From Escherichia coli (GTDB lineage Bacteria > Pseudomonadota > Gammaproteobacteria > Enterobacterales > Enterobacteriaceae), in assembly GCF_003334335.1 (NCBI RefSeq), contig NZ_QOWQ01000009.1: a stretch of 64,000 nt of DNA; one strand, 5' to 3'. Positions 3,086 to 46,609 of this stretch are shown one piece after another (positions within the stretch are counted from its first letter, which is position 1; the number at the start of each line of letters is the position of its first letter). The position numbers were made by a program, and so were the translations under genes. The notes beneath the pieces are model-generated. The model did no database searches, was not told the origin of the DNA, and worked only from the letters and a program-made list of their open reading frames with translations.

Positions 3086-4223
3086 TCAGGCGTCACGCGG
3101 TAACCCTTTTTCAATCACCCGAACCAGACGCTGTTTTTTCGGCAATTGCACTTCGACTATGCACGCATTTCGTCTCTCTATTTGCTGCGCAATCGCCCAC
3201 GCTATGTGCTCATCGAGAAGTGGGTGCTCACCTTTACGACTTTCCAGCGCTGTCAAAATCGTTTCATCCCAAGGGGCATTGCCTAATGCTACGGCGATAT
3301 TACGCAGCCAACGCAGGTGACCAATACGACGAATCGCCGATCCTTCCGTGACTTTTAAAAACTTCTCTTCGCTCCAGGCGAATAACTCAATGAGTTCCGG
3401 TGCGTGTAGCGGCTTACGCGGGCTGAAATCCTCTTCTGTGGTGAGTTGTGAATAGCGATTCCACGGGCAGATAAGCTGGCAGTCATCGCAACCGTAAATA
3501 CGGTTTCCCATTAACGGTCGCAACTCTTCCGGGATCGCCCCTTCAAGTTCGATGGTGAGATAAGAGATACAGCGGCGAGCATCGACGGTATATGGCTCGA
3601 CGATGGCACCGGTCGGGCAAATCGTCATACAGGCCACGCATTTGCCGCATCCTTCCTCGACTGGTTGATCCACGGGCAGCGGAATATCGACCAGCAATTC
3701 GCCTAAAAAGAAGAACGAACCGGCCTCGCGATTGAGGATAAGTGAGTGCTTACCTGTCCAGCCGAGCCCAGCTTTTTCAGCTAACGGGCGCTCGAGAATA
3801 GGCGCAGAATCGACAAACGGTCTAAAATTCAGCGAAACACAATGTTGCTGAATCATCTCGCCCAGCTTTTTGAGTCGGTTGCGCAGAAGTTTGTGATAGT
3901 CACGGCCCAGCGCATAACGGCTAACATAGCCGAGTTTGGGGTTTTTCAGCGTGCTGGCAAATGCGGCGTTAGCAGGAAGGTAATTCATCCGCACGCTGAT
4001 CACGCGCAGCGTACCGGGCAATAACTCATGAGGGCGAGCGCGCAGCATACCGTGACGTGCCATCCAGTCCATTTCGCCGTGGTATTGTTTGTCCAGCCAT
4101 GCTTGCAGTTTGGGCTCGGACTCGCTGAGATCGGTATCGGTAATACCTACCTGCTGAAAGCCCAGTTCCAGCCCCCACTGTTTAATTTTTTGCGCTAACT
4201 GATTGAGATCGAGGGGCTCTGAC

Positions 4224-6222: not shown

Positions 6223-7560
6223 ATGATGTATCGCATCAGAAATTGGTTGGTAGCGACGCTGCTGCTGCTGTGCACGCCGGTGGGTGCCGCGACGCTCTCT
6301 GATATTCAGGTTTCTAACGGTAATCAACAGGCGCGGATAACGTTGAGTTTTATTGGCGATCCTGATTATGCGTTTAGCCATCAAAGCAAACGCACCGTGG
6401 CGCTCGATATCAAACAAACGGGCGTGATTCAGGGACTGCCGTTGTTGTTCAGCGGCAATAATCTGGTGAAGGCGATTCGCTCTGGAACGCCTAAAGATGC
6501 ACAAACGCTACGGCTGGTGGTCGATCTTACCGAAAACGGTAAAACCGAAGCGGTGAAGCGGCAGAATGGCAGCAATTACACTGTCGTCTTTACGATTAAC
6601 GCCGATGTGCCGCCACCGCCTCCTCCGCCGCCCGTGGTTGCGAAACGCGTTGAAACGCCTGCGGTTGTCGCACCGCGCGTCAGCGAACCGGCGCGCAATC
6701 CGTTTAAAACGGAAAGTAACCGCACTACGGGTGTTATCAGCAGTAATACGGTAACGCGTCCGGCAGCGCGCGCGACGGCTAACACTGGCGATAAAATTAT
6801 CATCGCTATTGATGCCGGACACGGCGGTCAGGACCCTGGCGCTATCGGCCCCGGTGGTACGCGGGAGAAAAATGTCACCATCGCCATCGCGCGTAAATTG
6901 CGTACTTTGCTCAATGACGATCCGATGTTTAAAGGCGTTTTAACCCGTGACGGGGATTACTTTATCTCGGTGATGGGGCGCAGTGATGTGGCACGTAAGC
7001 AAAACGCCAATTTCCTCGTGTCGATTCACGCTGATGCCGCACCGAACCGCAGTGCGACTGGCGCTTCCGTATGGGTGCTCTCTAACCGTCGCGCCAACAG
7101 TGAAATGGCCAGCTGGCTGGAGCAGCACGAGAAACAGTCGGAGCTGCTGGGTGGGGCGGGTGATGTGCTGGCGAACAGTCAGTCTGACCCCTATTTAAGC
7201 CAGGCGGTGCTGGATTTACAGTTCGGTCATTCCCAGCGGGTAGGGTATGATGTAGCGACCAGTATGATCAGTCAGTTGCAACGCATTGGCGAAATACATA
7301 AACGTCGACCAGAACACGCCAGCCTTGGCGTTCTGCGCTCGCCGGATATCCCATCAGTACTGGTCGAAACCGGTTTTATCAGCAACAACAGCGAAGAACG
7401 TTTGCTGGCGAGCGACGATTACCAACAACAGCTGGCAGAAGCCATTTACAAAGGCCTGCGCAATTACTTCCTTGCGCATCCGATGCAATCTGCGCCGCAG
7501 GGTGCAACGGCACAAACTGCCAGTACGGTGACGACGCCAGATCGCACGCTGCCAAACTAA
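6223..7560 (+). CDS. amiB: N-acetylmuramoyl-L-alanine amidase AmiB
   Basis: ORF 6208..7560; [30 protein letters not shown] signal peptide, Pro-rich linker, amidase_3 domain; start set at 6223 (445 aa). Confidence 0.9.
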
Positions 7561-7569
7561 GGACGATTG

Positions 7570-9417
7570 ATGCCAATTCAGGTCTTACCGCCACAACTGG
7601 CGAACCAGATTGCCGCAGGTGAGGTGGTCGAGCGACCTGCGTCGGTAGTCAAAGAACTAGTGGAAAACAGCCTCGATGCAGGTGCGACGCGTATCGATAT
7701 TGATATCGAACGCGGTGGGGCGAAACTTATCCGCATTCGTGATAACGGCTGCGGTATCAAAAAAGATGAGCTGGCGCTGGCGCTGGCTCGTCATGCCACC
7801 AGTAAAATCGCCTCTCTGGACGATCTCGAAGCCATTATCAGCCTGGGCTTTCGCGGTGAGGCGCTGGCGAGTATCAGTTCGGTTTCCCGCCTGACGCTCA
7901 CTTCACGCACCGCAGAACAGCAGGAAGCCTGGCAGGCCTATGCCGAAGGGCGCGATATGAACGTGACGGTAAAACCGGCGGCGCATCCTGTGGGGACGAC
8001 GCTGGAGGTGCTGGATCTGTTCTACAACACCCCGGCGCGGCGCAAATTCCTGCGCACCGAGAAAACCGAATTTAACCACATTGATGAGATCATCCGCCGC
8101 ATTGCGCTGGCGCGTTTCGACGTCACGATCAACCTGTCGCATAACGGTAAAATTGTGCGTCAGTACCGCGCAGTGCCGGAAGGCGGGCAAAAAGAACGGC
8201 GCTTAGGCGCGATTTGCGGCACCGCTTTTCTTGAACAAGCGCTGGCGATTGAATGGCAACACGGCGATCTCACGCTACGCGGCTGGGTGGCCGATCCAAA
8301 TCACACCACGCCCGCACTGGCAGAAATTCAGTATTGCTACGTGAACGGTCGCATGATGCGCGATCGCCTGATCAATCACGCGATCCGCCAGGCCTGCGAA
8401 GACAAACTGGGGGCCGATCAGCAACCGGCATTTGTGTTGTATCTGGAGATCGACCCACATCAGGTGGACGTCAACGTGCACCCCGCCAAACACGAAGTGC
8501 GTTTCCATCAGTCGCGTCTGGTGCATGATTTTATCTATCAGGGCGTGCTGAGCGTGCTACAACAGCAACTGGAAACGCCGCTACCGCTGGACGATGAACC
8601 CCAACCTGCACCGCGTTCCATTCCGGAAAACCGCGTGGCGGCGGGGCGCAATCACTTTGCAGAACCGGCAGCTCGTGAGCCGGTAGCTCCGCGCTACACT
8701 CCTGCGCCAGCATCAGGCAGTCGTCCGGCTGCCCCCTGGCCGAATGCGCAGCCAGGCTACCAGAAACAGCAAGGTGAAGTGTATCGCCAGCTTTTGCAAA
8801 CGCCCGCGCCGATGCAAAAATTAAAAGCGCCGGAACCGCAGGAACCTGCACTTGCGGCGAACAGTCAGAGTTTTGGTCGGGTACTGACTATCGTCCATTC
8901 CGACTGTGCGTTGCTGGAGCGCGACGGCAACATTTCACTTTTATCCTTGCCAGTGGCAGAACGTTGGCTGCGTCAGGCACAATTGACGCCGGGTGAAGCG
9001 CCCGTTTGCGCCCAGCCGCTGCTGATTCCGTTGCGGCTAAAAGTTTCTGCCGAAGAAAAATCGGCATTAGAAAAAGCGCAGTCTGCCCTAGCGGAATTGG
9101 GTATTGATTTCCAGTCAGATGCACAGCATGTGACCATCAGGGCAGTGCCTTTACCCTTACGCCAACAAAATTTACAAATCTTGATTCCTGAACTGATAGG
9201 CTACCTGGCGAAGCAGTCCGTATTCGAACCTGGCAATATTGCGCAGTGGATTGCACGAAATCTGATGAGCGAACATGCGCAGTGGTCAATGGCACAGGCC
9301 ATAACCCTGCTGGCGGACGTGGAACGGTTATGTCCGCAACTTGTGAAAACGCCGCCGGGTGGTCTGTTACAATCTGTTGATTTACATCCGGCGATAAAAG
9401 CCCTGAAAGATGAGTGA
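7570..9417 (+). CDS. mutL: DNA mismatch repair protein MutL
   Basis: ORF 7567..9417; [40 protein letters not shown] (GHKL ATPase motifs); 615 aa from ATG 7570. Confidence 0.95.
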
Positions 9418-35676: not shown

Positions 35677-36223
<547 letters not shown>

Positions 36224-36252
36224 TCGGTCACGGTCCATTAATACGACTTTGA

Positions 36253-36714
<462 letters not shown>

Positions 36715-36738
36715 TTCGTTATTCAACGAGACGTAAAA

Positions 36739-36768
36739 ACGCCGACCATTGGTCGGCGTTTTGCTTTT
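36739..36768. terminator. bidirectional rho-independent terminator (rplI on plus strand; accessory operon on minus strand)
   Basis: Hairpin ACGCCGACC-ATTG-GGTCGGCGT flanked by AAAAA upstream and TTTTGCTTTT downstream. Confidence 0.8.
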
Positions 36769-36825
36769 GTAGCGAGCACTTGCAGATATCGATAAGGGCC
36801 ACAATAAGCAGCCCTACGAAGATAA

Positions 36826-37797
36826 TTACTTAGCTGCCTGAATATCAGCCAGCATTGGGGCAAGGGCTGGGTTGTCCTTAGCGAAGTTTGCGTACATTGG
36901 CTGTACTTTCTCGATAAACGGAGCTTTATCTACCTGGTAGACTTTCACGCCCATTTTATCCAGTTTTGCAAATTCTTGTTTCTCTTCCTCGCTCCACAAG
37001 TCTTTCATGTAGCTCATTGATTCTTTAGCTGCTTTTAATATAACTGCCTGATTTTCCTGGCTAAGTTTATCAAACGCAGCATTGCTCATCAGAACCACAT
37101 CGGGAACCATAGTGTGTTCGTCAAGGCTGAAGGATTTTGCCACTTCACCGTGACGCATGGTAGTCAGCGCCATCACGCTGTTTTCTGCCATATCGACCAC
37201 ACCCTGCTGTAAGGCTGTATACAACTCGCCGTAATCCAGTGGCGTCGGGTTACCGCCCATGACTTTGATCATTTCAACTGCGCCAGGGCTTGGCTGGACA
37301 CGGACTTTCATGCCTTTCAGATCGTCTGGTTTCAGTACTGGTTTATTGCCATAGAAACTGCGGGCGCCTCCATCATAAAAAGTCAGCCCGAAATAACCTT
37401 TGCTTTTCGTTGAGTCGAGGATTTTTCTCCCGATATCGCCCTGCATGACCTGATAATAATGATCACGATCGCGGAACAAATAAGGCAGGCTAAATAATTT
37501 ATAGGAATTTTCAAATGCTTCCATTTCTGCCGCATTGGTTTTTACCAGGGGAATAGCGCCAGAACGAATCAGCTCCATTGTTTCTCGTTGAGTACCCAAT
37601 GTTCCATTTGGATAAATACGAATAGTAATATCACCGTTAGAGTACTCTTTGCTCTTTTTCGCAAAGAACTCCATCGCTTTATGAACAGGATGAGACTTAT
37701 CCTGATTATGACTCAGTTTTAATGTCACTGCCCAGGACTGGCTTGCGGATAACATAAGAACAGCACCGATAATGCCAGCGGATACTTTTATTTTCAT
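36826..37797 (-). CDS. TRAP transporter periplasmic solute-binding protein (DctP family)
   Basis: 323 aa, signal peptide MKIKVSAGIIGAVLMLSASQSWA; DctP-like fold with Arg in YDGGARSFYG at the position typical for carboxylate binding; last gene of operon; AT-rich. Confidence 0.8.
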   Translation of the reverse strand: MKIKVSAGIIGAVLMLSASQSWAVTLKLSHNQDKSHPVHKAMEFFAKKSKEYSNGDITIRIYPNGTLGTQRETMELIRSGAIPLVKTNAAEMEAFENSYKLFSLPYLFRDRDHYYQVMQGDIGRKILDSTKSKGYFGLTFYDGGARSFYGNKPVLKPDDLKGMKVRVQPSPGAVEMIKVMGGNPTPLDYGELYTALQQGVVDMAENSVMALTTMRHGEVAKSFSLDEHTMVPDVVLMSNAAFDKLSQENQAVILKAAKESMSYMKDLWSEEEKQEFAKLDKMGVKVYQVDKAPFIEKVQPMYANFAKDNPALAPMLADIQAAK

Positions 37798-37849
37798 AGA
37801 TGTTCCTTTTCTAATAAATATGGCGGCAGGTGCCGCCAGTGAATGCGCA

Positions 37850-39151
37850 TCAGTAGCCCAGTGCTCTTGGCAATGCCATACTGATTTGCGGAATATAGGT
37901 CACCATTGCCAGCACCAATACCATCACGGCATAGAATGGCAGCATAGGTTTGATAATTTTATTAATCGGTAATTTAGATACACTACAACCGACAAATAAC
38001 ACACTGCCTACAGGCGGAGTACAAATACCGATACACATGTTCAGTACCATGACAATACCAAAGTGAATCGGGTCCATGCCCAGTTCGGTGACAACCGGTA
38101 AAAATATCGGCGTAAAAATCAGTACCGCCGGTGTCATATCCATAAAAGTGCCGATAATCAACAGGATAATATTGATAATAAGCAGGATTATTATTGGGTT
38201 GTCAGAAATAGTGTTAAGCAAATCGAGAATCAGGAAGGGAACGTCAGCGTTTGACATTGCCCATGACATACCCATCGAAGAACCAATTAATAACAAGACA
38301 ATTGCAGTGGTAATAACGGATTCCAGAAATATTTTAGGTAAATCTTTAACTGAGATTTCACGATAAAGAACCAGTGCAAGGAAAAGGGTATAAATTACTG
38401 CAATTGCGGAGGCCTCTGTCGGGGTAAAAATACCACTTAATACACCCCCCATAATTAAAATAATCAGGAAAATACTGGGGATAGCCATCCATATCGCAAC
38501 GCCAGCCTGGCGTAAAGTCGGGCGTTCTGGCTTTGGATAACCGCGACGTACCGCGATAATACCGGCTATTACCATCAGTGCCAGACCCAGCAAAATTCCC
38601 GGAACATAACCCGCCAGGAACAGTGCGGCAATAGAAGTACCACCACTGACCAGTGAATAGACGATTAACGTATTACTTGGTGGAATAAGCAAACCCGTCG
38701 GGGCAGAGGCAACGTTAACCGCAGTACTGAATGCCGGGTCGTAACCCTCTTTAACCTGTTGCGGATGCATGACGCCGCCCATCGCAGCCGCCGAAGCCAC
38801 GGCTGAACCAGAAATTGCCCCGAACAGCATATTGGCGAGAATATTACAGTGGGCAAGTGAGCCTGGCAGACGACCGCCGAGAATACGGGCAAAGTTGATT
38901 AATCGTCGCGCTATTCCTCCATGGTTCATAATGTTGCCAGACAAGATAAAAAATGGGATTGCCAACAACGTAAAACTATCTAACCCGGAGGCTAACTTTT
39001 GGGAAACCACACTCAATGCTGAGTTGAAATCGAGTTGTGTGGAAATTGATGCCAGTGTCGATAAACCAATGGCATAAACAATAGGTACACCTAATGCCAA
39101 CATAAAAAAGAAGGCACCAAATAACACAATAATCGGTAACCAGTAATCCAT
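37850..39151 (-). CDS. TRAP transporter large permease (DctM family)
   Basis: 433 aa polytopic membrane protein, typical DctM N-terminus MDYWLPIIVLFGAFFFMLALGVPIVYAIGLSTLA; GGAG SD before ATG; sampled lines about 30% G+C. Confidence 0.85.
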   Translation of the reverse strand: MDYWLPIIVLFGAFFFMLALGVPIVYAIGLSTLASISTQLDFNSALSVVSQKLASGLDSFTLLAIPFFILSGNIMNHGGIARRLINFARILGGRLPGSLAHCNILANMLFGAISGSAVASAAAMGGVMHPQQVKEGYDPAFSTAVNVASAPTGLLIPPSNTLIVYSLVSGGTSIAALFLAGYVPGILLGLALMVIAGIIAVRRGYPKPERPTLRQAGVAIWMAIPSIFLIILIMGGVLSGIFTPTEASAIAVIYTLFLALVLYREISVKDLPKIFLESVITTAIVLLLIGSSMGMSWAMSNADVPFLILDLLNTISDNPIIILLIINIILLIIGTFMDMTPAVLIFTPIFLPVVTELGMDPIHFGIVMVLNMCIGICTPPVGSVLFVGCSVSKLPINKIIKPMLPFYAVMVLVLAMVTYIPQISMALPRALGY

Positions 39152-39193
39152 AATTTCTCCATTCCTACTATGGTTGGTTGTTGTTTGTTATCT

Positions 39194-39694
39194 TTAGAGT
39201 GGTTGTTTAAGTTCGGTTAAAACCATATCTATGGTGTATATAATAATAAGTACACCACTAATCGGGATGCTCATATAGATATATCCCATTTGCCAGCCTA
39301 AAGCGGGCGAGGTCTGACCTGAATCGAATGTATCCATCGTTAATAGCCCACCACCATATACCATAATGATGGTTGCGAAGATAATAACGATAATCTGAAT
39401 ACACAAAAATAAATGACGTCGGGCTTTTCCTTTCAGCATCATAGGTAGCAGGTCAATCGCCAGATGCCGGTTTTGCCCTGCGGTGTATGCCCCACCAAAA
39501 AGTCCAAGACAAATAAAGAGCAAACGGCTGAGTTCATCTGTAAAAATACTGGGACTAGTAAATATAAATCGTGCAGCCACCTGCCACGTCACACATGCCA
39601 CGATGATCGCCAAAATGGTAATGTTCAATGCTGCAAGCAGAGCATTAATAGATCTAATTATATTTCGCATAGTGATTAACCTTTGCAATATCAT
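39194..39694 (-). CDS. TRAP transporter small permease (DctQ family)
   Basis: 166 aa, four hydrophobic segments, size and position typical of DctQ; start ATG overlaps stop of upstream flavoprotein gene (ATGA). Confidence 0.7.
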   Translation of the reverse strand: MILQRLITMRNIIRSINALLAALNITILAIIVACVTWQVAARFIFTSPSIFTDELSRLLFICLGLFGGAYTAGQNRHLAIDLLPMMLKGKARRHLFLCIQIIVIIFATIIMVYGGGLLTMDTFDSGQTSPALGWQMGYIYMSIPISGVLIIIYTIDMVLTELKQPL

Positions 39695-41772
39695 TCATCC
39701 TGTGGCTGGTAAATTGTCCCATTAAGAAAACCAGGCCAGTTTTTTTCAAACCAAATACCTCGGATAATAGGAAACTCACGAACAGGTGTTTCTCTGACGT
39801 GAAAGATACCGTTGCAATAATGAATAAGTAGTTTATCTTTTTTATCCTCAGTACGCTCTGAACGAAAGCGCCAGGCATCACAAAAACCATTTCGTGTTTG
39901 CGGAATAGAATTTCCATCCCTGTCGAGAATAATACGTGCTCCCCGACTACCACCACCTGCGTCAATATAATGCGTTAATTGCGTTAATACGGCGGCAGAA
40001 GTCAGTGCCATATGCCGCCACATAAACAGCTCGGCAACTTCACCCACATGTTTGATAGCCAATCCATGCCGTTGGACAAATTCGCTCAATAGCAGGGCAT
40101 CGCGAGTGGCGCGTCGGACTTTATCGGCATGGCAAATAAATCCCGCATGGTCAGACATTCGTGCCTGAATTTTTTCTCTCACAACCGACAACGGCATCCC
40201 GGTCCCGTTATCGTGCGCCTGAGTAATGATCTCTCTTATAGAAGCCAGTGTAGGAGCTACCAGCTGTGCTATATCTCCATCAATATTCCGCTTTTGCGTG
40301 CAACCAATAAAACGTGCCAGACGAACAGCAAAAACCTGCCCGGCATTCAATGCTGCACCACCAGGGCGAGTGACGCCGTGTGTGCCAGCAACTTCCCCCA
40401 CGGCGAAACAGCCGGGCAGGGAGGTTTGTCCCCAGATATCCACTTCAATGCCGCCATTCATATGCTGATTATTCATGGCAAACTGCAAAGGCTGTGTGGT
40501 GAGATCGTAACCGTGCATCTTATACAGCGAGATAGACAGCGGATTCATTCGTTGCAGCCGTTCGATGGGCGATGGTGCCAGAGCGTCGTTATTTTCCAGA
40601 TACGCGCGAACGTCGTCGTCCAGTCGATCTAATGAGAACGGCAGGTCACCCGGCACCGCTTCAGGATTGCGATTGAAATCCATAAATACCTGACGCCCTG
40701 ATTGCTGCTCTTGCGCTACTGCCATATCTAACAAGCTGGAGCCAAAATCCATCACCCGAGTGGCGTGGAACGGCCACTGATAGCCTTTACGGAAAATGTT
40801 TGAAGCCAGCTCCTGGGTGGTGCGATAGTAATCCGCGAGGAAGTTATACTCGTTACCCTCAGCATCCACGGAATAGATATACGGGATCACCTGTACATAG
40901 GTGCCGGATAAATTCCACGGAAACGTGCTACGCGGCGTGCCTATACCAAACTGGCTTTCGGTCAGATTGGTTAGCGTCAGGCCTTCCTCCAGCGCCAGCC
41001 CCAGCGAGCCAAAACATTTGTGTGGGTACACACTGTCGCGATAAAGCTCGCCAGGCCCTCCTGTTGCCAGTACCACATTGGGCGCAGTCACAATTGCCAG
41101 CCCCCAAGGGTTATGGGCGCGATGACCGGTCGCGAGGATTGCCCCCGCAACACGGTCTTCGCCGTTTTCGTCACGCTGATGCAGCAGTTTAATCACTGTT
41201 GCACTGGTCAACACTGGAATGGCGAGGCGCTGTACTTCTTCCAACAGCACTTTCACCATTAACCTTGAGGTACGCGGCCCACACGAGGTTGCACGCCCGG
41301 CTTCGTCATGGTCGGTTTGATAACGAAGAATCGCGCCATAGCGATCTTCCGGTAATTCCAGACCAAGATATTGCAACCCGCCAAGAGTGTGCAGAGAACC
41401 TACCGCTTCGACATAAGCGGTGTCGTGATCCATCGCCCCACCGCTCGCCAGTGCCTCTGCCAGTTTGGTGAAGTTGTCGCCGTTGCCCGCGGTAGCGGCG
41501 GTAAACAGTGTCTGTTTATCGGAACCAGAACATGCCGACGTCCCCATATATAACCCGGCGGTGGCGATCAGCACATTTTGCTGGCGGCGTTTAAGTTCCA
41601 CAGCTGCACGCAGCCCGGCTGCACCACTGCCGACTACCAGGGCATCTGTTTGCCAGAGTGGGTAATCAACACCGTCTACCGTGACAACCCATGCGGGCTC
41701 TGCCTGTGCAAAACCCTTTGGGAAAGTAACGTGCGTCAGCGCATCAAGGATGGTGTCATCAAGCTGACTCAT
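39691..41772 (-). CDS. FAD-dependent oxidoreductase, fumarate reductase/succinate dehydrogenase flavoprotein-like (693 aa)
   Basis: N-terminal dinucleotide-binding motif ALVVGSGAAGLRAAVEL; C-terminal FAD motif GCFAVGEVAGTHGVTRPGGAALNAGQVFAVRLARFI; no RSHT-type covalent-FAD His motif seen; ATGA overlaps on both sides. Confidence 0.75.
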   Translation of the reverse strand: MSQLDDTILDALTHVTFPKGFAQAEPAWVVTVDGVDYPLWQTDALVVGSGAAGLRAAVELKRRQQNVLIATAGLYMGTSACSGSDKQTLFTAATAGNGDNFTKLAEALASGGAMDHDTAYVEAVGSLHTLGGLQYLGLELPEDRYGAILRYQTDHDEAGRATSCGPRTSRLMVKVLLEEVQRLAIPVLTSATVIKLLHQRDENGEDRVAGAILATGHRAHNPWGLAIVTAPNVVLATGGPGELYRDSVYPHKCFGSLGLALEEGLTLTNLTESQFGIGTPRSTFPWNLSGTYVQVIPYIYSVDAEGNEYNFLADYYRTTQELASNIFRKGYQWPFHATRVMDFGSSLLDMAVAQEQQSGRQVFMDFNRNPEAVPGDLPFSLDRLDDDVRAYLENNDALAPSPIERLQRMNPLSISLYKMHGYDLTTQPLQFAMNNQHMNGGIEVDIWGQTSLPGCFAVGEVAGTHGVTRPGGAALNAGQVFAVRLARFIGCTQKRNIDGDIAQLVAPTLASIREIITQAHDNGTGMPLSVVREKIQARMSDHAGFICHADKVRRATRDALLLSEFVQRHGLAIKHVGEVAELFMWRHMALTSAAVLTQLTHYIDAGGGSRGARIILDRDGNSIPQTRNGFCDAWRFRSERTEDKKDKLLIHYCNGIFHVRETPVREFPIIRGIWFEKNWPGFLNGTIYQPQDE

Positions 41773-43310
41773 GCATCCTCCATCGGCGTAAACAGGCTAC
41801 TTTCCATCAGGCGTGGGTGCTTGATAATTGGACGGAAAGCCATATACGGCAGAATGTCGCGCTCAATCTCCACACCCGGCGCGATTTCAATTAATTCAAC
41901 GCCTTCTGCCGTTAACTGGAATACTGCGCGTTCAGTGATATACAACACTTCCTGACCACTTTGCTGTGCGTAGGCGGCGCTAAAAGTGATTTTTTCCACC
42001 TTGGTAACCAGTTTAGGGATTTGACCTGACTGGGCGATATGCAAGCCATCTGGTGTTATATCGATCTTGCTGCCTTTAGCGTCGAACGTGCCGCAGAACA
42101 CCACTTTACGGGCATTTTGCGCAATTTCGAGAAATCCGCCGGGGCCAATCAGATTGCCATTGAGATGGGAGACGTTGACGTTACCGTACTGATCCATCTC
42201 TCCCATGCCGAGGAAGGTGATATCGATCCCTCCGCCACTGTAGAACTCAAATTGATCGAGTGATGGAATAATGGCATCGGCGTTGCGGGCGCAGCCGAAA
42301 AACGCATCATCCAGCATCATGCCGTTATGTACGCCTTGCTCGACGCTCAGCCATAAACTTTGGTAAGGAACGCCTTCGCGCAGCGCTACTCCTGGAATGC
42401 CGCCGGGAATACCAAAGCCAAAGTTGGTTGAAGCGCCAGCTACCAGTTCGCGTGCTGCCCGACGGGCAATCAGGCGACGTACCGGATGACTAACCAGTTC
42501 AATAGCGTCGTTAGAACTCAGACGGCGATGTTGGCCGCTGATGGTCAGGTCGTAACCGCCAAGATAGGTTTGTGGTTGTTCGCGGTGTTCAACGATGCCA
42601 TCAACCAGAATGCCCGGTAATTTGACCCGGCGTGGTTCAATCGCGCCAGCTTCCAGCACATCGCGTACCTGTACGAACACTTTGCCGCCGCTGTTGTGTG
42701 CTGCCAGCGCCATGGAATAGCTATCCATATCAATCGCTTCTTCTTCAAGGCTGACGTTGCCTCGAGGATCGGCATAAGTGCCACGCAAAATCGCGTAATC
42801 CACTTTGAAAGGGCGATAACGAAGTTTGGTTTCACCGTCGATTTCAATCAGTTCTACCAGCTCGTCGGTAGTGCATTCATTCGACTTACCGCCGCCATTG
42901 CGTGGATCAACAAACGATCCCAGCCCAACGTGGGTAAAAAGCCCCGGACGTCCGGCGCCGATCTCCCGTAGCAGTGCCTGAATCACGCCACCAGGAAAGC
43001 AGTAGGCTTCAATCGTGTTATTTTTTACCAGCGCCTGCATTTTGGGCGACCAGGTAAAGTGCCCGGCAATAATGCGTTTGAGCATCTCTGCGTGCGCAAA
43101 ACGATTAGTGCCTTTGCAGTCGCGATCGCCAATACCCAGCGAGTGGATTAGCGTCAGGTCGCGAGGGTGTCCGGTTTGCAGGAAACGCGCTTCAATAGCA
43201 GCCAGAATATGGTCGGCTTCCACCATACCGCCGCCGTTACCGCTAATAGCAATAGTCGCACCGTCCTGAATTTGCGCCGCCAGTGCCTCGGCGGTTGTTA
43301 TCTTACGCAT
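41769..43310 (-). CDS. family-I CoA-transferase, fused alpha/beta subunits (YdiF / propionate-CoA-transferase-like)
   Basis: 513 aa; GNGGG-containing N-terminus (ATIAISGNGGGMVEADHILAAI) and overall layout of fused 3-oxoacid/acetate CoA-transferases; family call from memory of fold. Confidence 0.7.
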   Translation of the reverse strand: MRKITTAEALAAQIQDGATIAISGNGGGMVEADHILAAIEARFLQTGHPRDLTLIHSLGIGDRDCKGTNRFAHAEMLKRIIAGHFTWSPKMQALVKNNTIEAYCFPGGVIQALLREIGAGRPGLFTHVGLGSFVDPRNGGGKSNECTTDELVELIEIDGETKLRYRPFKVDYAILRGTYADPRGNVSLEEEAIDMDSYSMALAAHNSGGKVFVQVRDVLEAGAIEPRRVKLPGILVDGIVEHREQPQTYLGGYDLTISGQHRRLSSNDAIELVSHPVRRLIARRAARELVAGASTNFGFGIPGGIPGVALREGVPYQSLWLSVEQGVHNGMMLDDAFFGCARNADAIIPSLDQFEFYSGGGIDITFLGMGEMDQYGNVNVSHLNGNLIGPGGFLEIAQNARKVVFCGTFDAKGSKIDITPDGLHIAQSGQIPKLVTKVEKITFSAAYAQQSGQEVLYITERAVFQLTAEGVELIEIAPGVEIERDILPYMAFRPIIKHPRLMESSLFTPMEDA

Positions 43311-43319
43311 ACAATTTCC

Positions 43320-44102
43320 TTATTGATTATGGAAGCTCACGCTACTTTTTTCGGCAAAGGCGCGCGTCGCCTGCTGGCAATCCTGAGTGGCAGACATTAA
43401 TCCGGCCAGTAGCTGGTGCGGGTAATCGGCATGTTTATTTTCCAGTGCCAGAATCAGTTGCTTAATATGCGCCAGTGCCACCGGGCCGCATTTTTCCAGC
43501 TGCGCTAACTGGTTCGCCATCCAGCTTTCCACCTGTTCTTTTTCTACCACTTCATCAATTAAATTCGCCGCCTGGGCTTCCTGCGCCGTCAGGCGTTTAC
43601 CCAGCATCAGCATCTGGCGACCGACCACCGGACCAACCTGATTAAGCACACGTTCAATGCCCATCCAGCCAGGCACCATGCCGAGCATCACTTCCGGGTT
43701 AGAGAATTTCGCGCCGGGGCGGGCAATACGAATATCGCAGCACAAGGCCAGTTCAATACCACCGCCGATGGTATGACCGTTGAGATTCGCAACGGTTAAT
43801 TGGGGTAAGTTTCGCAGGCGATTAAAAACGTCATTACCGCGTTTAATCCATTTTCTGCCCATATCTAATGGCGAATAGGCCGACCACGATTTAATATCGC
43901 CGCCCGCACAAAAGAATTTATCGCCGGTTGCCGTTAATTCGACTAATCGTAATGTGGTGTCGTTTTCAATTTCATTTAAATAATGGTCGAGAGATTCGAT
44001 CATCTCTTCGTTAATAGCATGACATTTATCTTCACGGTTCAATGTCAGGCGGCAGGAAGCCGCCGCTCTGCTGAACAGAACGGGTTGGTCACTCATGATC
44101 AT
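43320..44102 (-). CDS. enoyl-CoA hydratase/isomerase (crotonase fold)
   Basis: 260 aa; oxyanion-hole motif FCAGGDIK, catalytic Glu motifs GGGIELALCCDIRIA and FSNPEVMLGMVPGWMG. Confidence 0.8.
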   Translation of the reverse strand: MIMSDQPVLFSRAAASCRLTLNREDKCHAINEEMIESLDHYLNEIENDTTLRLVELTATGDKFFCAGGDIKSWSAYSPLDMGRKWIKRGNDVFNRLRNLPQLTVANLNGHTIGGGIELALCCDIRIARPGAKFSNPEVMLGMVPGWMGIERVLNQVGPVVGRQMLMLGKRLTAQEAQAANLIDEVVEKEQVESWMANQLAQLEKCGPVALAHIKQLILALENKHADYPHQLLAGLMSATQDCQQATRAFAEKSSVSFHNQ

Positions 44103-44105
44103 TCC

Positions 44106-44948
44106 TTAACAATAATGCGCGATGCGATCGACGCTAATATCCAGCGTGCTGTTAATATCTTTTTGCCACCAGTACGGCGAGAATATTTCCAGTTCAATAG
44201 CGCCATTAAATCCGGCGTTTTCAACCAGCCGACGAATTGACGGAATATTGATGACGCCATCTCCCGGCATACCACGGTCATTGACCAGATCAGTGGTCGG
44301 CACTAACCAGTCGGAAACATGAAACGCGAGGATGCGTTTTCCGGCACGCAGGATCTGACTGGCGAGATCCGGATCCCACCAGACGTGATAAACATCCACC
44401 GCCACGCCGAGGCCAAACTCACCATCGGGATCGAGTTCATCACACCAGTCCAGCGCCTGGCGTAACGTGCACAGGCAAGAGCGATCGGCAGCTGTCATCG
44501 GGTGCAGTGGCTCCAGCGCAATTGGCACGCCGACATCTTTCGAATGTGGCAGCAACTGGCGAATCCCTTGTTTCACTTGTTCTCGCGCTTCATATAGATC
44601 TTTAGTGCCCGTTGGCAGACCGCCAACCACCTGCATATAACAGGCGGCGTTAAGCACCGCTGCGTCGTCCAGCGCCCGGCGGTTATCATCAATCGCCAGT
44701 TTGCGTTCCGCCAGTGTCGGCGCGGTGTAGTAAGTGCTACGGCACAAACCGGAAACGCTCATGTTACTGGCGGCAAGCTGGTGGGCGATTTGCTGGAGAT
44801 CTTCACCTTGCAACTCCCTGCGCCAGGGAGCAATCGCGCCAATACCACGCGCGGCGCAGGCATCAATAATGGCGGGTAGCGGCGTTTTATAGCCCAGTGT
44901 TGCGGTATTGATACTGAATAAATCCGGGCGTTGTAACAGATCTCTCAT
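44106..44948 (-). CDS. sugar-phosphate isomerase/epimerase, xylose-isomerase-like TIM barrel
   Basis: 280 aa; conserved metal-ligand pattern of the family (IALEPLHP, DVYHVWWD, AIELEIF); the same fold as UlaE in this window but clearly a different sequence. Confidence 0.7.
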   Translation of the reverse strand: MRDLLQRPDLFSINTATLGYKTPLPAIIDACAARGIGAIAPWRRELQGEDLQQIAHQLAASNMSVSGLCRSTYYTAPTLAERKLAIDDNRRALDDAAVLNAACYMQVVGGLPTGTKDLYEAREQVKQGIRQLLPHSKDVGVPIALEPLHPMTAADRSCLCTLRQALDWCDELDPDGEFGLGVAVDVYHVWWDPDLASQILRAGKRILAFHVSDWLVPTTDLVNDRGMPGDGVINIPSIRRLVENAGFNGAIELEIFSPYWWQKDINSTLDISVDRIAHYC

Positions 44949-44957
44949 GATTCAGCC

Positions 44958-45749
44958 TCAGAAGCGCGGCATACTTAAGCCGCCGTCGATGGCGACCGCC
45001 TGACCACAGGTGTAAATCAGTTTACCTTCCGCCATCGCGCGGACAGTGGAAGCAATATCAGCCGGATAACCCCAACGTCCCCACGGCACCAGACCTTTGG
45101 CAATCAGTTCGTCGTAATAAGCCGTTGCCGGAATAGTCATATCAGTTTTGATGAGACCTGGGCGCACTTCATAAACGCCAATTTGTTCATTACAAAGGCG
45201 AGCTGCAAATAGACGAGCAGCGGCAGAAACGGCGGTTTTGGCAATGGTGTATTCGCCGCGATTCATCGCCAGCATGATGGCGTTGATGGAACTGACGAAA
45301 ATAATCGAGCGGTGCGGCAGTTCCGCTTCCGGTTTCGGCTGTGCCAGTAAACGCTTACTGAATGCCTGAGCAAGGAAGAACGGCGCGCGGGTGTTAATGG
45401 CAATGTTTTGATCGAAGCTGTCTGGTTCGAGGTCGAGGAGGTCACCGCGTTTTTTCACTGAAATGCCTGCGTTGTTGAGCAGGCAGTCCAGACGTCCCCA
45501 CAGGTTTTGCGCCGCGTCGAGCATCTCTTCATGCAAGGAGAGATCGCCGACATCGGCAGGGAAGCAAATCACTTCCACGCCTTCAGCTATACATTCTTGT
45601 TGTGTGATATGCAGTTTTTCTACGCTGTCGGCATCGGGAAGATCGTTAATCAGCAGGTTAAATCCGCCACGAGCAAGCTCCAGCGCACAGCCCTTTCCAA
45701 TACCACGAGCGGCTCCGGTAATCACGGCAACAGGACGAGTGGATTTCAT
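44958..45749 (-). CDS. short-chain dehydrogenase/reductase (SDR), first gene of accessory operon
   Basis: TGAARGIGKG cofactor motif, NNAG, catalytic YTIAK; ORF track begins at a TTG (45791); first ATG at 45749 gives the usual spacing before the Gly motif. Confidence 0.85.
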   Translation of the reverse strand: MKSTRPVAVITGAARGIGKGCALELARGGFNLLINDLPDADSVEKLHITQQECIAEGVEVICFPADVGDLSLHEEMLDAAQNLWGRLDCLLNNAGISVKKRGDLLDLEPDSFDQNIAINTRAPFFLAQAFSKRLLAQPKPEAELPHRSIIFVSSINAIMLAMNRGEYTIAKTAVSAAARLFAARLCNEQIGVYEVRPGLIKTDMTIPATAYYDELIAKGLVPWGRWGYPADIASTVRAMAEGKLIYTCGQAVAIDGGLSMPRF

Positions 45750-45795
45750 ACAATAGCTCTCTTTTTTTGAATATTGTTTTCTAAGTGACAATTAG

Positions 45796-45839
45796 CTTGC
45801 GACGTGCCGCAAGAAAGATCAACCATCTGGTTGGTTGAT
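45796..45839. promoter_or_regulatory. two adjacent palindromes in the divergent control region between the accessory operon and its TetR gene (candidate operators)
   Basis: CTTGCG-ACGTGC-CGCAAG (45796-45813) and ATCAACCA-TCTGGT-TGGTTGAT (45818-45839, with nested AACCA-TC-TGGTT); read directly. Confidence 0.5.
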
Positions 45840-45961
45840 ATGCGATAGTGATCACAGGACATTTGATAACTTGATGAAAGTACAAGTTTTTATCCTTTTT
45901 ACTGGAGCTTCTAATTAATCGGGTTAAGATAGTTATCTTGAAGAGGTCGTGGGGAAGCGTT

Positions 45962-46609
45962 ATGTATCTTGATACCAGCAACGTACAGAGCCTGAAGGAA
46001 AAGCTGCTGTTATGCGCGGTTAATGAATTTGCCGAATATGGTTATGAAGGGGCCAGGGTCGATAATATTGTTAAGGCTGCGGGGTGTAGTAAACAGACGG
46101 TTTATCATCACTTTGGTAATAAAGAAAATTTATTTATTGAAGTACTGGAATATACCTGGAACGATATTCGACAAAAAGAAAAGGCCCTTGATTTCTCAGA
46201 TCTTCCGCCACAAAAAGCCATTGAGAAAATTATTGATTTTACATGGGATTATTATATTGCTAATCCCTGGTTTTTAAAAATTGTGCATAGTGAAAATCAA
46301 AGTAAAGGTGTGCATTATGCAAAATCACAGCGTCTCTTAGAAATTAACCATGCGCACTTGCAGTTAATGGAATCCTTATTGGATGAAGGGAAGAAACACA
46401 ATATTTTTAAGCCAGATATCGACCCATTGCAGGTGAATATTAATATTGCTGCGCTTGGCGGATATTATTTGATCAACCAGCATACGCTTGGCCTGGTTTA
46501 TCATATCAGTATGGTTTCCCCCCAGGCACTGGAAGCCAGACGTAAGGTCATCAAAGAGACAATCCTTAGCTGGCTTTTGGTTGACCCTTCATCTACCGCG
46601 CACGAATAA
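45962..46609 (+). CDS. TetR-family transcriptional regulator
   Basis: N-terminal [47 protein letters not shown]; ORF track start 45938 is TTG, first ATG at 45962; 3' end overlaps ytfB 3' end by 17 nt. Confidence 0.8.

Follow-up and report, generated by a model that had tools for sequence, protein, structure and literature searches.

The closest described relatives of the flavoprotein treated here are the flavoprotein subunits of fumarate reductase (FRD) and succinate dehydrogenase (SDH), FrdA and SdhA, together with the L-aspartate oxidase NadB. The protein of 693 aa is encoded at positions 39691-41772 on the minus strand of a 64,000-nucleotide stretch of Escherichia coli DNA (NZ_QOWQ01000009.1), the whole of which is called the window in the following. 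A preliminary description of the window had assigned it to the FRD/SDH/NadB superfamily, and Pfam, fold and profile matches agree with this placement. The open reading frame (ORF) was confirmed, and RefSeq gives identical coordinates ('FAD-dependent oxidoreductase', WP_000080339.1). Judged by its sequence, the protein represents in E. coli a large clade within the FRD/aspartate oxidase superfamily that has never been characterised and whose active site appears remodelled. The fold and the cofactor, flavin adenine dinucleotide (FAD), were already known; the metabolic context is new.

With FrdA and SdhA the protein shares the four-domain fold, the GxGxxG and C-terminal FAD motifs, the equivalent of R390 and a similar size. 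In contrast to these subunits it carries a 38-residue N-terminal extension, the Pfam domain Succ_DH_flav_C is not detected, genes for Fe-S or anchor subunits are missing nearby, and the covalent-FAD histidine and three further active-site residues are replaced (see below). NadB resembles it as a soluble enzyme with non-covalent FAD and no partner subunits. However, the flavoprotein is about 150 residues longer, lacks equivalents of His244 and Arg290, and is encoded in a context of sugar-acid catabolism, not of NAD synthesis. The thiol:fumarate reductase TfrA is also a soluble FRD-like protein and gave the best NCBIfam match, but far below the cut-off, and a TfrB-like Fe-S/heterodisulfide reductase partner is not present.

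A FAD_binding_2 domain and a presumed reaction at a C=C bond next to a carboxylate connect the protein with flavocytochrome c, UrdA and the NADH:fumarate, acrylate and cinnamate reductases, including the shikimate reductases of gut bacteria. These enzymes form another branch (TIGR01813), and FMN_bind domain, haem domain and signal peptide are absent here. The NADH-oxidising domains of NADH:enoate reductases are similar to Old Yellow Enzyme (OYE) and recall the OYE protein accompanying the gene in many anaerobes; this partner, however, is an Fe-S protein of its own, which E. coli lacks. The steroid dehydrogenase KstD, combined with hydroxysteroid dehydrogenases of the short-chain dehydrogenase/reductase (SDR) type, is a further parallel, as an SDR is paired with a FAD_binding_2 desaturase, the Arg/His set of FRD is lost and a tyrosine is a possible base (Y292 in the flavoprotein). 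In contrast to KstD, the carboxylate-binding Arg is kept, no family score is significant (PRK06134, 27 bits) and the context is one of sugar acids and not of steroids. Finally, the carnitine system CaiB/CaiD/CaiA also consists of an operon with coenzyme A (CoA) transferase, crotonase, flavoprotein and uptake system. CaiB belongs to family III and CaiA has the acyl-CoA dehydrogenase fold, whereas a family I transferase and an FRD fold are found here; the likeness is an analogy only.

Family, fold and length of the flavoprotein

FAD_binding_2 was the sole Pfam match (8.4e-28; model positions 1-414 of 414, residues 43-475). Both FAD motifs named in the preliminary description are present and conserved throughout 60 family members. 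The GxGxxG motif reads G48-S-G50-A-A-G53, with G48 and G50 invariant, and the C-terminal motif G459-E460...G466...R469-P-G-G (GE..G.HG..RPGG, 459-472) is invariant. No NCBIfam family passed its cut-off. The matches to TfrA, NadB and Sdh/Frd models reached a quarter of the cut-off or less, with 126 of 718 bits for TfrA, 101 of 453 for nadB (TIGR00551), 109 of 639 for PRK07804, 81 of 567 for TIGR01812, 44 of 854 for PRK09231 and 37 of 285 for TIGR01813. The best matches of a sequence search against the PDB were remote NadB and Sdh entries (5e-9).

The fold was examined with an AlphaFold (AF2) model built on 60 diverse relatives (predicted local distance difference test, pLDDT, 93.4; predicted template modelling score, pTM, 0.94). 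Foldseek found E. coli FrdA and mitochondrial and bacterial SdhA as nearest structures (E about 1e-31, 15-19% identity), with 665-700 aligned columns and a target-normalised TM score of 0.72-0.80. With hhalign, the family profile aligned to FrdA over residues 39-623 of the query and 3-543 of FrdA; NadB was the best profile-profile match (E 2e-24). According to the model, all four domains of a complex II flavoprotein (FAD, capping, helical and C-terminal) are present.

The protein had been called unusually long, and a check of about 150 extra residues for a capping or substrate domain had been suggested. Compared to NadB (540 aa) it is indeed long, but not compared to FrdA (602 aa) or to its own family. 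An exhaustive search of 1.84 billion representatives yielded 422 family clusters at 50% identity (E<=1e-30), in which nearly all full-length proteins have 640-700 aa; the enterobacterial orthologues have 689-698 aa. The extra length consists of the 38-residue N-terminal extension and small insertions. An additional domain was rejected, as alignment and fold span the full FrdA architecture. A mis-called start was rejected as well. A Shine-Dalgarno sequence (GGAGGA) lies upstream, the 38 N-terminal residues are modelled with pLDDT 75-96, and conservation in the relatives begins at residue 4-8.

All fold neighbours in AFDB50 are unnamed 'FAD-binding protein' entries, among them proteins of Succinatimonas, Enterocloster, Halanaerobium, Treponema, Coriobacterium and an Asgard archaeon. 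The clade is marked by the signature GTS.N.GSDKQT, QFG, FRWNLSG.YQQ, GYQWPF, GSSLID, CAQH.NGG, RPGGSALN and GGGSRG, all found in the flavoprotein itself and invariant or nearly so in the alignment. With two of these motifs as search patterns, 586 metagenome relatives were confirmed.

The N-terminus is acidic, and a reading of the sequence gave no signal peptide, hydrophobic region or twin-arginine motif. Haem and FMN_bind domains were not found by Pfam. The protein is predicted to be cytoplasmic and soluble. A periplasmic respiratory reductase comparable to the shikimate and urocanate reductases was rejected, as signal peptide, FMN_bind and haem domain are all missing.

Active site

Residues of FrdA and NadB were mapped by profile alignment (15-24% identity in the capping domain), and two alignments agreed. 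The preliminary description had noticed no RSHT-type histidine for covalent attachment of FAD. This could be confirmed, as His44 of FrdA aligns to the nearly invariant G77 within GTS.N.GSDKQT, and FAD is probably bound non-covalently. The substrate-binding H232 of FrdA (QFHPT) corresponds to G276 (QFG), the proton-shuttle residue R287 (GPRD) to S345 (GSSLID) and the substrate-binding H355 to Q436, which is followed by H437. All four residues of the flavoprotein are invariant in the 60 sequences. R390 of FrdA, the carboxylate clamp, is retained as R469, also invariant. The alignment to NadB with its catalytic residues His244, Arg290, His351 and Arg386 gave the same substitutions (QFH to QFG, APRD to GSSL).

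Furthermore, several invariant or nearly invariant residues have no counterpart in FRD, namely S84-D85-K86-Q87-T88, R285-W286-N287, Y292, Q294, K329, W333 and R405. Y151, Y292 and Y331, candidates for comparison with the Tyr/Tyr/Tyr/Gly catalytic set of KstD, are nearly invariant. This pattern suggests that one flavin-side carboxylate subsite is kept (R469 with H437/Q436), while the rest of the pocket may have been rebuilt for a different, larger substrate. The kept Arg/His pair argues for a free acid and not a CoA thioester as the substrate.

These replacements rule out that the protein is a usual aspartate oxidase or fumarate reductase, a finding that the preliminary description had named as its refutation. 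A common NadB, FrdA or SdhA paralogue with a wrong start is suggested by the names of the best NCBIfam and PDB matches (TfrA, NadB, Sdh/Frd). However, the scores are far below the cut-offs, H232, R287 and the covalent histidine are absent, Fe-S and anchor genes are lacking, and the start is supported as described above. We consider this explanation refuted, with practically no probability left to it.

The operon

The flavoprotein gene is part of an unbroken run of eight minus-strand genes, separated by 3-52 nt or overlapping by 4 nt. The order is SDR, triosephosphate isomerase (TIM) barrel protein, crotonase, CoA-transferase, flavoprotein, dctQ, dctM and dctP; the run ends at 36826. Around the flavoprotein gene, 11.4 kb are 100% identical to several complete E. 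coli genomes, which locates the window on the chromosome. The SDR (44958-45749, minus strand) is a classical one with 417 bits for PRK12745 (cut-off 250). The TIM barrel protein (44106-44948, minus strand) is of the xylose isomerase-like type (AP_endonuc_2) and matches PDB entries 3qc0/3ju2 (SMc04130) with 1e-84 and IolO, Hyi and OtnI weakly; it is probably an isomerase, epimerase or dehydratase. An orthologue with 61% identity adjoins an SDR-FAD-TRAP cluster elsewhere, TRAP standing for the tripartite ATP-independent periplasmic transporters. The crotonase-family enoyl-CoA hydratase (ECH; 43320-44102, minus strand) matches NCBIfam enoyl-CoA hydratases with 1e-44, and its translation contains both catalytic Glu motifs (GGGIELAL, NPEVMLG). 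The CoA-transferase (41769-43310, minus strand) is of family I with fused alpha and beta parts and is similar to YdiF (PDB 2ahu, 1.2e-113; NCBIfam matches of the FadX/PcaIJ type). The TRAP system consists of the small permease DctQ (39194-39670), the large permease DctM (37850-39151; TIGR00786, 458 bits) and the solute-binding protein DctP (36826-37797), all on the minus strand. Genes for an Fe-S subunit, a membrane anchor or an electron-transfer partner are not found in the E. coli operon, and OYE is absent from it.

The gene order confirms that the flavoprotein shares an operon with the CoA-transferase and the TRAP system, as had been proposed before. ATGA overlaps had been reported on both sides of the flavoprotein gene. 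The one between the stop codon of the CoA-transferase and the start codon of the flavoprotein could be verified. The overlap with dctQ exists for the longest ORF of the latter only (from 39694). The RefSeq start of dctQ at 39670, which is also the probable start, is the second ATG, 24 nt past the start of the longest ORF and 20 nt after the stop of the flavoprotein gene. The N-termini of DctQ homologues match this shorter form, with a conserved Trp at position 29 in both. The dctQ overlap is probably an artefact of the longest ORF. Thus, coupling of the flavoprotein to dctQ is doubtful, since homologues and RefSeq support the shorter start; the two genes are clearly co-operonic.

The composition of the operon allows for a loop of CoA esters. 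The CoA-transferase would activate the imported acid, the crotonase would hydrate or dehydrate the acyl-CoA, and the flavoprotein would act as CaiA-like enoyl-CoA reductase or as surrogate acyl-CoA dehydrogenase. A variant is a beta-oxidation-like sequence of CoA-transferase, FAD protein, ECH and SDR as in the Ali/Bad pathway of alicyclic acids. The ATGA coupling to the CoA-transferase is in line with this, and the four enzyme types are a complete beta-oxidation-like set, including a crotonase with both catalytic glutamates. The Arg/His pair clamping a carboxylate is, however, kept in every member of the family and would be superfluous for a thioester. Moreover, we know of no enzyme of the FRD superfamily that acts on a CoA ester.

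Gene neighbourhoods in other organisms

Neighbourhoods across phyla were surveyed by tblastn against plasmids, look-ups of exact proteins and one metagenome scan, a survey that is not species-resolved. In a Rhizobium plasmid (55% identity) one operon contains CoA-transferase, ECH, aldehyde dehydrogenase, a sugar ATP-binding cassette (ABC) transporter, two glucose-methanol-choline (GMC) oxidoreductases, Gfo/Idh/MocA, the FAD protein, a KdgK-like kinase and a class I aldolase. Metagenome contigs with orthologues of 44-46% identity carry TetR, SDR, FAD protein, TIM barrel and DctPQM; CoA enzymes are absent from them. The gene of Halanaerobium is located with a tripartite tricarboxylate transporter (TTT), UxaB-like, UxaE, UxaC and UxaA-like proteins. 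OYE, FAD protein, SDR and a fusion of Eda and KdgK were found in Aminicenantes. The cluster of Subdoligranulum includes an IlvD/Edd dehydratase, LacI, TIM barrel, OYE, zinc-dependent alcohol dehydrogenase, PRK12745 SDR and FAD protein, and that of Anaerovirgula OYE, LacI, DctPQM, zinc-dependent alcohol dehydrogenase and FAD protein. OYE, SDR and FAD protein of a Firmicutes bin are encoded beside DUF1961, Gfo/Idh/MocA and a sulfatase. At one further locus a GH4 glycosidase gene adjoins the flavoprotein gene.

Neighbours were counted at 80 metagenome loci, including a clade with 53-61% identity (n=29) and one with 35-42% identity (n=45). For the former, Gfo/Idh/MocA was found at 15 of 29 loci, CoA-transferase and ECH within 4 kb at 7-8 and a PfkB kinase directly downstream at 7; LacI and sugar ABC transporters also occur. 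In the 35-42% clade an SDR accompanies the gene at 27 of 45 loci, OYE at 21, in many cases as a fusion with a GltD-like NAD(P)H module, and a PfkB kinase of the KdgK type at 18; CoA-transferase and ECH were never found beside the flavoprotein gene. An NAD-dependent dehydrogenase, genes for sugar acids or hexuronates and an exit by kinase and aldolase of the 2-keto-3-deoxygluconate (KDG) type recur in independent architectures. The SDR is the commonest partner beside the gene in other phyla. It is an SDR or another NAD-dependent dehydrogenase that is conserved as the partner across phyla; an Fe-S OYE protein and a kinase of the KDG type often join it. The CoA-transferase is not this conserved partner and co-occurs in the proteobacterial clade only.

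The counts bear directly on the CoA-ester loop. CoA-transferase, ECH and flavoprotein are co-operonic both in E. coli and in the Rhizobium plasmid, and the two CoA enzymes lie within 4 kb of the gene at the 7-8 loci of the 53-61% clade. Against this stand the orthologues with 44-46% identity, whose TetR-SDR-FAD-TIM-TRAP clusters have no CoA enzyme, and the 35-42% clade, which never has them. In total, we regard a flavoprotein acting on CoA esters as an unlikely but credible explanation.

The OYE partners of the anaerobes comprise about 450 aa with the motif C-x2-C-x2-C-x11-C, typical of a [4Fe-4S] cluster of the FadH/BaiCD type, and have no NAD(P)H/FAD domain. They are encoded at 6756-8114 of locus L015, 3131-4498 of L016, 8658-9998 of L019, 6812-8182 of L022 and 4130-5485 of L010; a GltD-fused form of a sediment lineage is found at 3744-6245 of L065. 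The NAD(P)H-linked Fe-S flavoprotein of the anaerobes could exchange electrons with the FAD protein, and the two may form an Fe-S-wired complex with two flavins.

This pairing also bears on a flavoenzyme without net redox chemistry, which would hydrate, dehydrate or isomerise a sugar acid that is unsaturated or carries a keto group. One FRD-like flavoprotein, 2-haloacrylate hydratase, is already known to act as a hydratase; the protein treated here has lost the catalytic proton-shuttle Arg and the substrate-binding His of FRD/NadB, and its E. coli operon has no electron-transfer partner. Furthermore, a uronate that is turned into a Kdu-type intermediate undergoes a net dehydration. However, the tight pairing of the anaerobe gene with Fe-S OYE or NAD(P)H-linked OYE-GltD proteins indicates electron flow, and a non-redox function is considered very unlikely.

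Two observations were made beside these clusters. In the sediment lineage a BNR_4 beta-propeller protein of 500 aa without NCBIfam match is encoded directly upstream of the flavoprotein (6256-7749 of L074 and 10 other loci). The closest non-enterobacterial homologues of the TIM barrel protein (49-54%), the CoA-transferase (44%) and the TetR regulator (40%) were found in plasmid clusters of Paraburkholderia (5335-11181 of L020) and Erwinia (6921-12340 of L021). Encoded in these clusters are a shikimate dehydrogenase similar to AroE/YdiB (annotated 'ThiF family'), an unusual 390-aa protein of the DHDPS family, Gfo/Idh/MocA and a transporter of the major facilitator superfamily (MFS); a flavoprotein gene is not present in them.

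Transported substrate

The best described counterpart of the transporter is the TRAP system STM3169-71 of Salmonella. STM3169 is a binding protein specific for D-glucuronate with a Kd of about 0.2 µM, and its ligand is contacted by N35, Q36, E74, R150, R170, N210 and D237 (PMC7660916). DctP of the window shows 45-50% identity to crystallised glucuronate- and galacturonate-binding TRAP proteins and 52% identity to the STM3169 orthologue. Six of the seven contacts are kept (N31, Q32, R146, R166, N206 and D233); the seventh, Glu74, is replaced by Gln70. By these contacts DctP belongs to the binding proteins of the D-glucuronate type represented by STM3169 and Apre_1383. A Gln at this position was also found in the DctP homologue of Paracoccus, which is encoded among uxaC, uxuA, a gene of the mannitol dehydrogenase family (uxuB) and a GH2 glycosidase. 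A further difference is that STM3169-71 is solitary in its genome, whereas the DctP system is joined to a five-enzyme operon.

In other E. coli strains an MFS transporter of the anion:cation symporter (ACS) family takes the place of the TRAP genes; TIGR00893 (314 bits) assigns it to the galactonate/hexuronate/aldarate subfamily. Because of the DctP contacts and this alternative sugar-acid transporter, the imported compound is expected to be of the hexuronate type; the sequences point to D-glucuronate, most simply, or a close relative.

Another class of substrates would be cyclitol carboxylates such as quinate, shikimate or the dihydroshikimate of gut bacteria, with the flavoprotein reducing or forming an enoate in the ring. 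In Paraburkholderia the homologues of TIM barrel protein (54%) and CoA-transferase (44%) flank the shikimate dehydrogenase of the AroE/YdiB type and an MFS transporter of the aromatic-acid/sialate type. IolG-, IolM- and IolO-like neighbours occur at several loci, and in K-12 ydiF adjoins ydiB-aroD. Shikimate-enoate reductases of the FRD family have been described for the gut bacteria Eggerthella and Sutterella (bioRxiv 10.1101/2022.12.26.521950). These known shikimate reductases, however, are secreted proteins of the flavocytochrome/UrdA type and represent the other branch, for which the flavoprotein scores 37 bits against a cut-off of 285. Against cyclitols also speak the glucuronate contacts kept in DctP, the subfamily of the alternative MFS transporter and the presence of UxaC/UxaE/UxaA/UxaB and KdgK/Eda in the neighbourhoods of the family. 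Only a small probability is given to this substrate class.

Proposed function

The evidence from active site, neighbourhoods and transporter is best combined in a cytoplasmic oxidoreductase with non-covalent FAD that acts beside the carboxylate of a hexuronate-derived sugar acid, a reading on which our own judgement is evenly balanced. The fold and motifs, the substituted residues, the structure and distribution of the operon, the type of transporter and the conserved neighbours have been shown; substrate class, direction of the reaction, bond attacked and role of the CoA enzymes are what we infer. A glucuronate-type sugar acid would enter the cell by the TRAP transporter (in other strains by the sugar-acid MFS transporter) and would be converted by the products of the eight-gene operon under control of TetR. 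Hydride would move between N5 of the flavin and a carbon in alpha or beta position relative to the free carboxylate. This could be a C-C desaturation, an ene-reduction or an oxidation of the alpha-carbon as in NadB. The flavoprotein would cooperate with the PRK12745-type SDR and the TIM barrel isomerase, possible functional analogues of KduD and KduI. The expected product is an acid of the 2-keto-3-deoxy type, which would feed KdgK and Eda of the core genome.

As the E. coli operon has no OYE partner, the quinone pool or oxygen would be the likely electron acceptor there; for the anaerobes the OYE/GltD proteins suggest a reduction driven by NAD(P)H. For the YdiF-like CoA-transferase and the crotonase, both confined to the proteobacterial clade, the most likely task is to provide an intermediate in the form of its CoA ester or to take one away in this form. 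A CoA-assisted loss of the hydroxyl group beta to the carboxylate (C4-OH of a uronate), comparable to the dehydration of carnitine by CaiB/CaiD, would be chemically attractive, but this is speculation. The preliminary description had proposed an enoate reductase or dehydrogenase acting on the imported acid or its CoA ester. A reaction near the carboxylate is still the most reasonable chemistry, whereas the CoA ester as substrate is disfavoured by the retained Arg/His pair.

Several points weigh against the oxidation or reduction of a hexuronate-derived acid as the function. The substrate and the direction are read from gene neighbours alone, and the residues of the capping domain were assigned by a profile alignment of low identity, not by structural superposition. 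Many of the 80 loci come from few lineages, and in the sediment lineage housekeeping genes such as uvrA and ilvBN show the same degree of synteny. As the locus counts thus overstate the independent support, architectures were counted instead and the sediment lineage was taken as one data point. The neighbourhoods are also heterogeneous. CoA enzymes accompany the gene at some loci and OYE/GltD Fe-S reductases at others, and one sediment lineage has an MtnA-like isomerase; hence, the subclades may differ in substrate. E. coli already possesses a complete glucuronate pathway with ExuT, UxaC, UxuB and UxuA, so the true substrate may be a relative of glucuronate. Several schemes from glucuronate to KDG using all five enzymes were drawn up. 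None of them was economical, and none is asserted.

In a more specific form, the flavoprotein would catalyse C4-C5 desaturation, ene-reduction or flavin-assisted dehydration of a hexuronate-type acid or its CoA form, a reaction new to the FRD superfamily. We put this forward tentatively and think it rather doubtful. If true, a second, CoA-assisted hexuronate route would exist in most E. coli, with relatives in anaerobes, and would have been hidden by the deletion in K-12.

Distribution in E. coli

The enzyme core from SDR to flavoprotein was detected with at least 80% coverage in 3113 of 5426 complete E. coli genomes (57%), including many human, urinary and animal isolates. The TRAP form of the operon, as in the window, was found in 1450 genomes. 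A second form is present in at least 1041 complete genomes (e.g. NZ_CP070162.1) at the same rplI-ytfB locus and with the same five enzymes. Its flavoprotein is 93% identical, and in place of the TRAP genes the MFS transporter is followed by a HipA/HipB toxin-antitoxin pair. This form was also seen on a metagenome contig (L028, 8001-13400). The TRAP permease, regarded before as coupled to the flavoprotein, is therefore not a fixed partner but a swappable one. The G+C content of the TRAP genes (compared over 36001-40000) is 43-47%, that of the enzyme genes (40001-46000) 52-54%, which suggests that the transporter is a swapped module of separate origin.

Comparison of the island with the rplI-ytfB region of MG1655 by blastn showed that positions 36768-46206 are absent from K-12, where about 1.1 kb carrying yjfZ is found instead. 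The pseudogene ytfA of K-12 represents the last 133 codons of the TetR gene of the island with 100% identity (46207-46609 of the window, 3694-4096 of the K-12 segment L002). Since ytfA is a remnant of this regulator gene, K-12 shows a scar where the whole operon was deleted or replaced. The operon is a majority trait of E. coli that was lost by K-12. No publication on it was found in literature searches, because K-12 has lost the operon. Just upstream of ytfA (L002 3587-3730, minus strand) lie 48 residues that share 52% identity with the island SDR over its positions 21-64 (E 1e-8), perhaps the remnant of a diverged SDR gene in the replacement segment.

The family extends over hundreds of clusters from Proteobacteria, Firmicutes, candidate phyla and an Asgard archaeon and is annotated as 'FAD-binding protein' only. 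Characterisation of one member would name the whole family and probably reveal a new catabolic step for uronates or other sugar acids, which are carbon sources relevant to colonisation of the gut and the urinary tract. It would also show an FRD active site rebuilt for a larger hydroxy acid. The operon is widespread and open to experiment, yet a blind spot in the bacterium that has been studied best; DctP, TetR and the five soluble enzymes are easily expressed.

Flanking features

The TetR/AcrR regulator gene (45962-46609, plus strand) is divergent from the operon. In the intergenic region between the SDR and TetR genes, the terminator scan detected the palindrome ATCAACCA-N6-TGGTTGAT with perfect 8-bp arms (45818-45839). 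A dedicated repeat search of the regulatory region reported no inverted repeat, so the palindrome comes from the terminator scan alone; by inference only, it is a candidate operator for TetR.

At the other end, a TTG-started ORF of 188 aa (36238-36804, minus strand) runs antisense to rplI (36265-36714, plus strand). Its translation is of low complexity and implausible, and it is almost certainly not a gene. The strain-specific DNA starts at 36768. The terminator scan further detected a hairpin with a 12-bp stem at 36736-36762, between the convergent genes rplI and dctP. This hairpin is the rplI terminator and likely serves as a bidirectional end of the operon.

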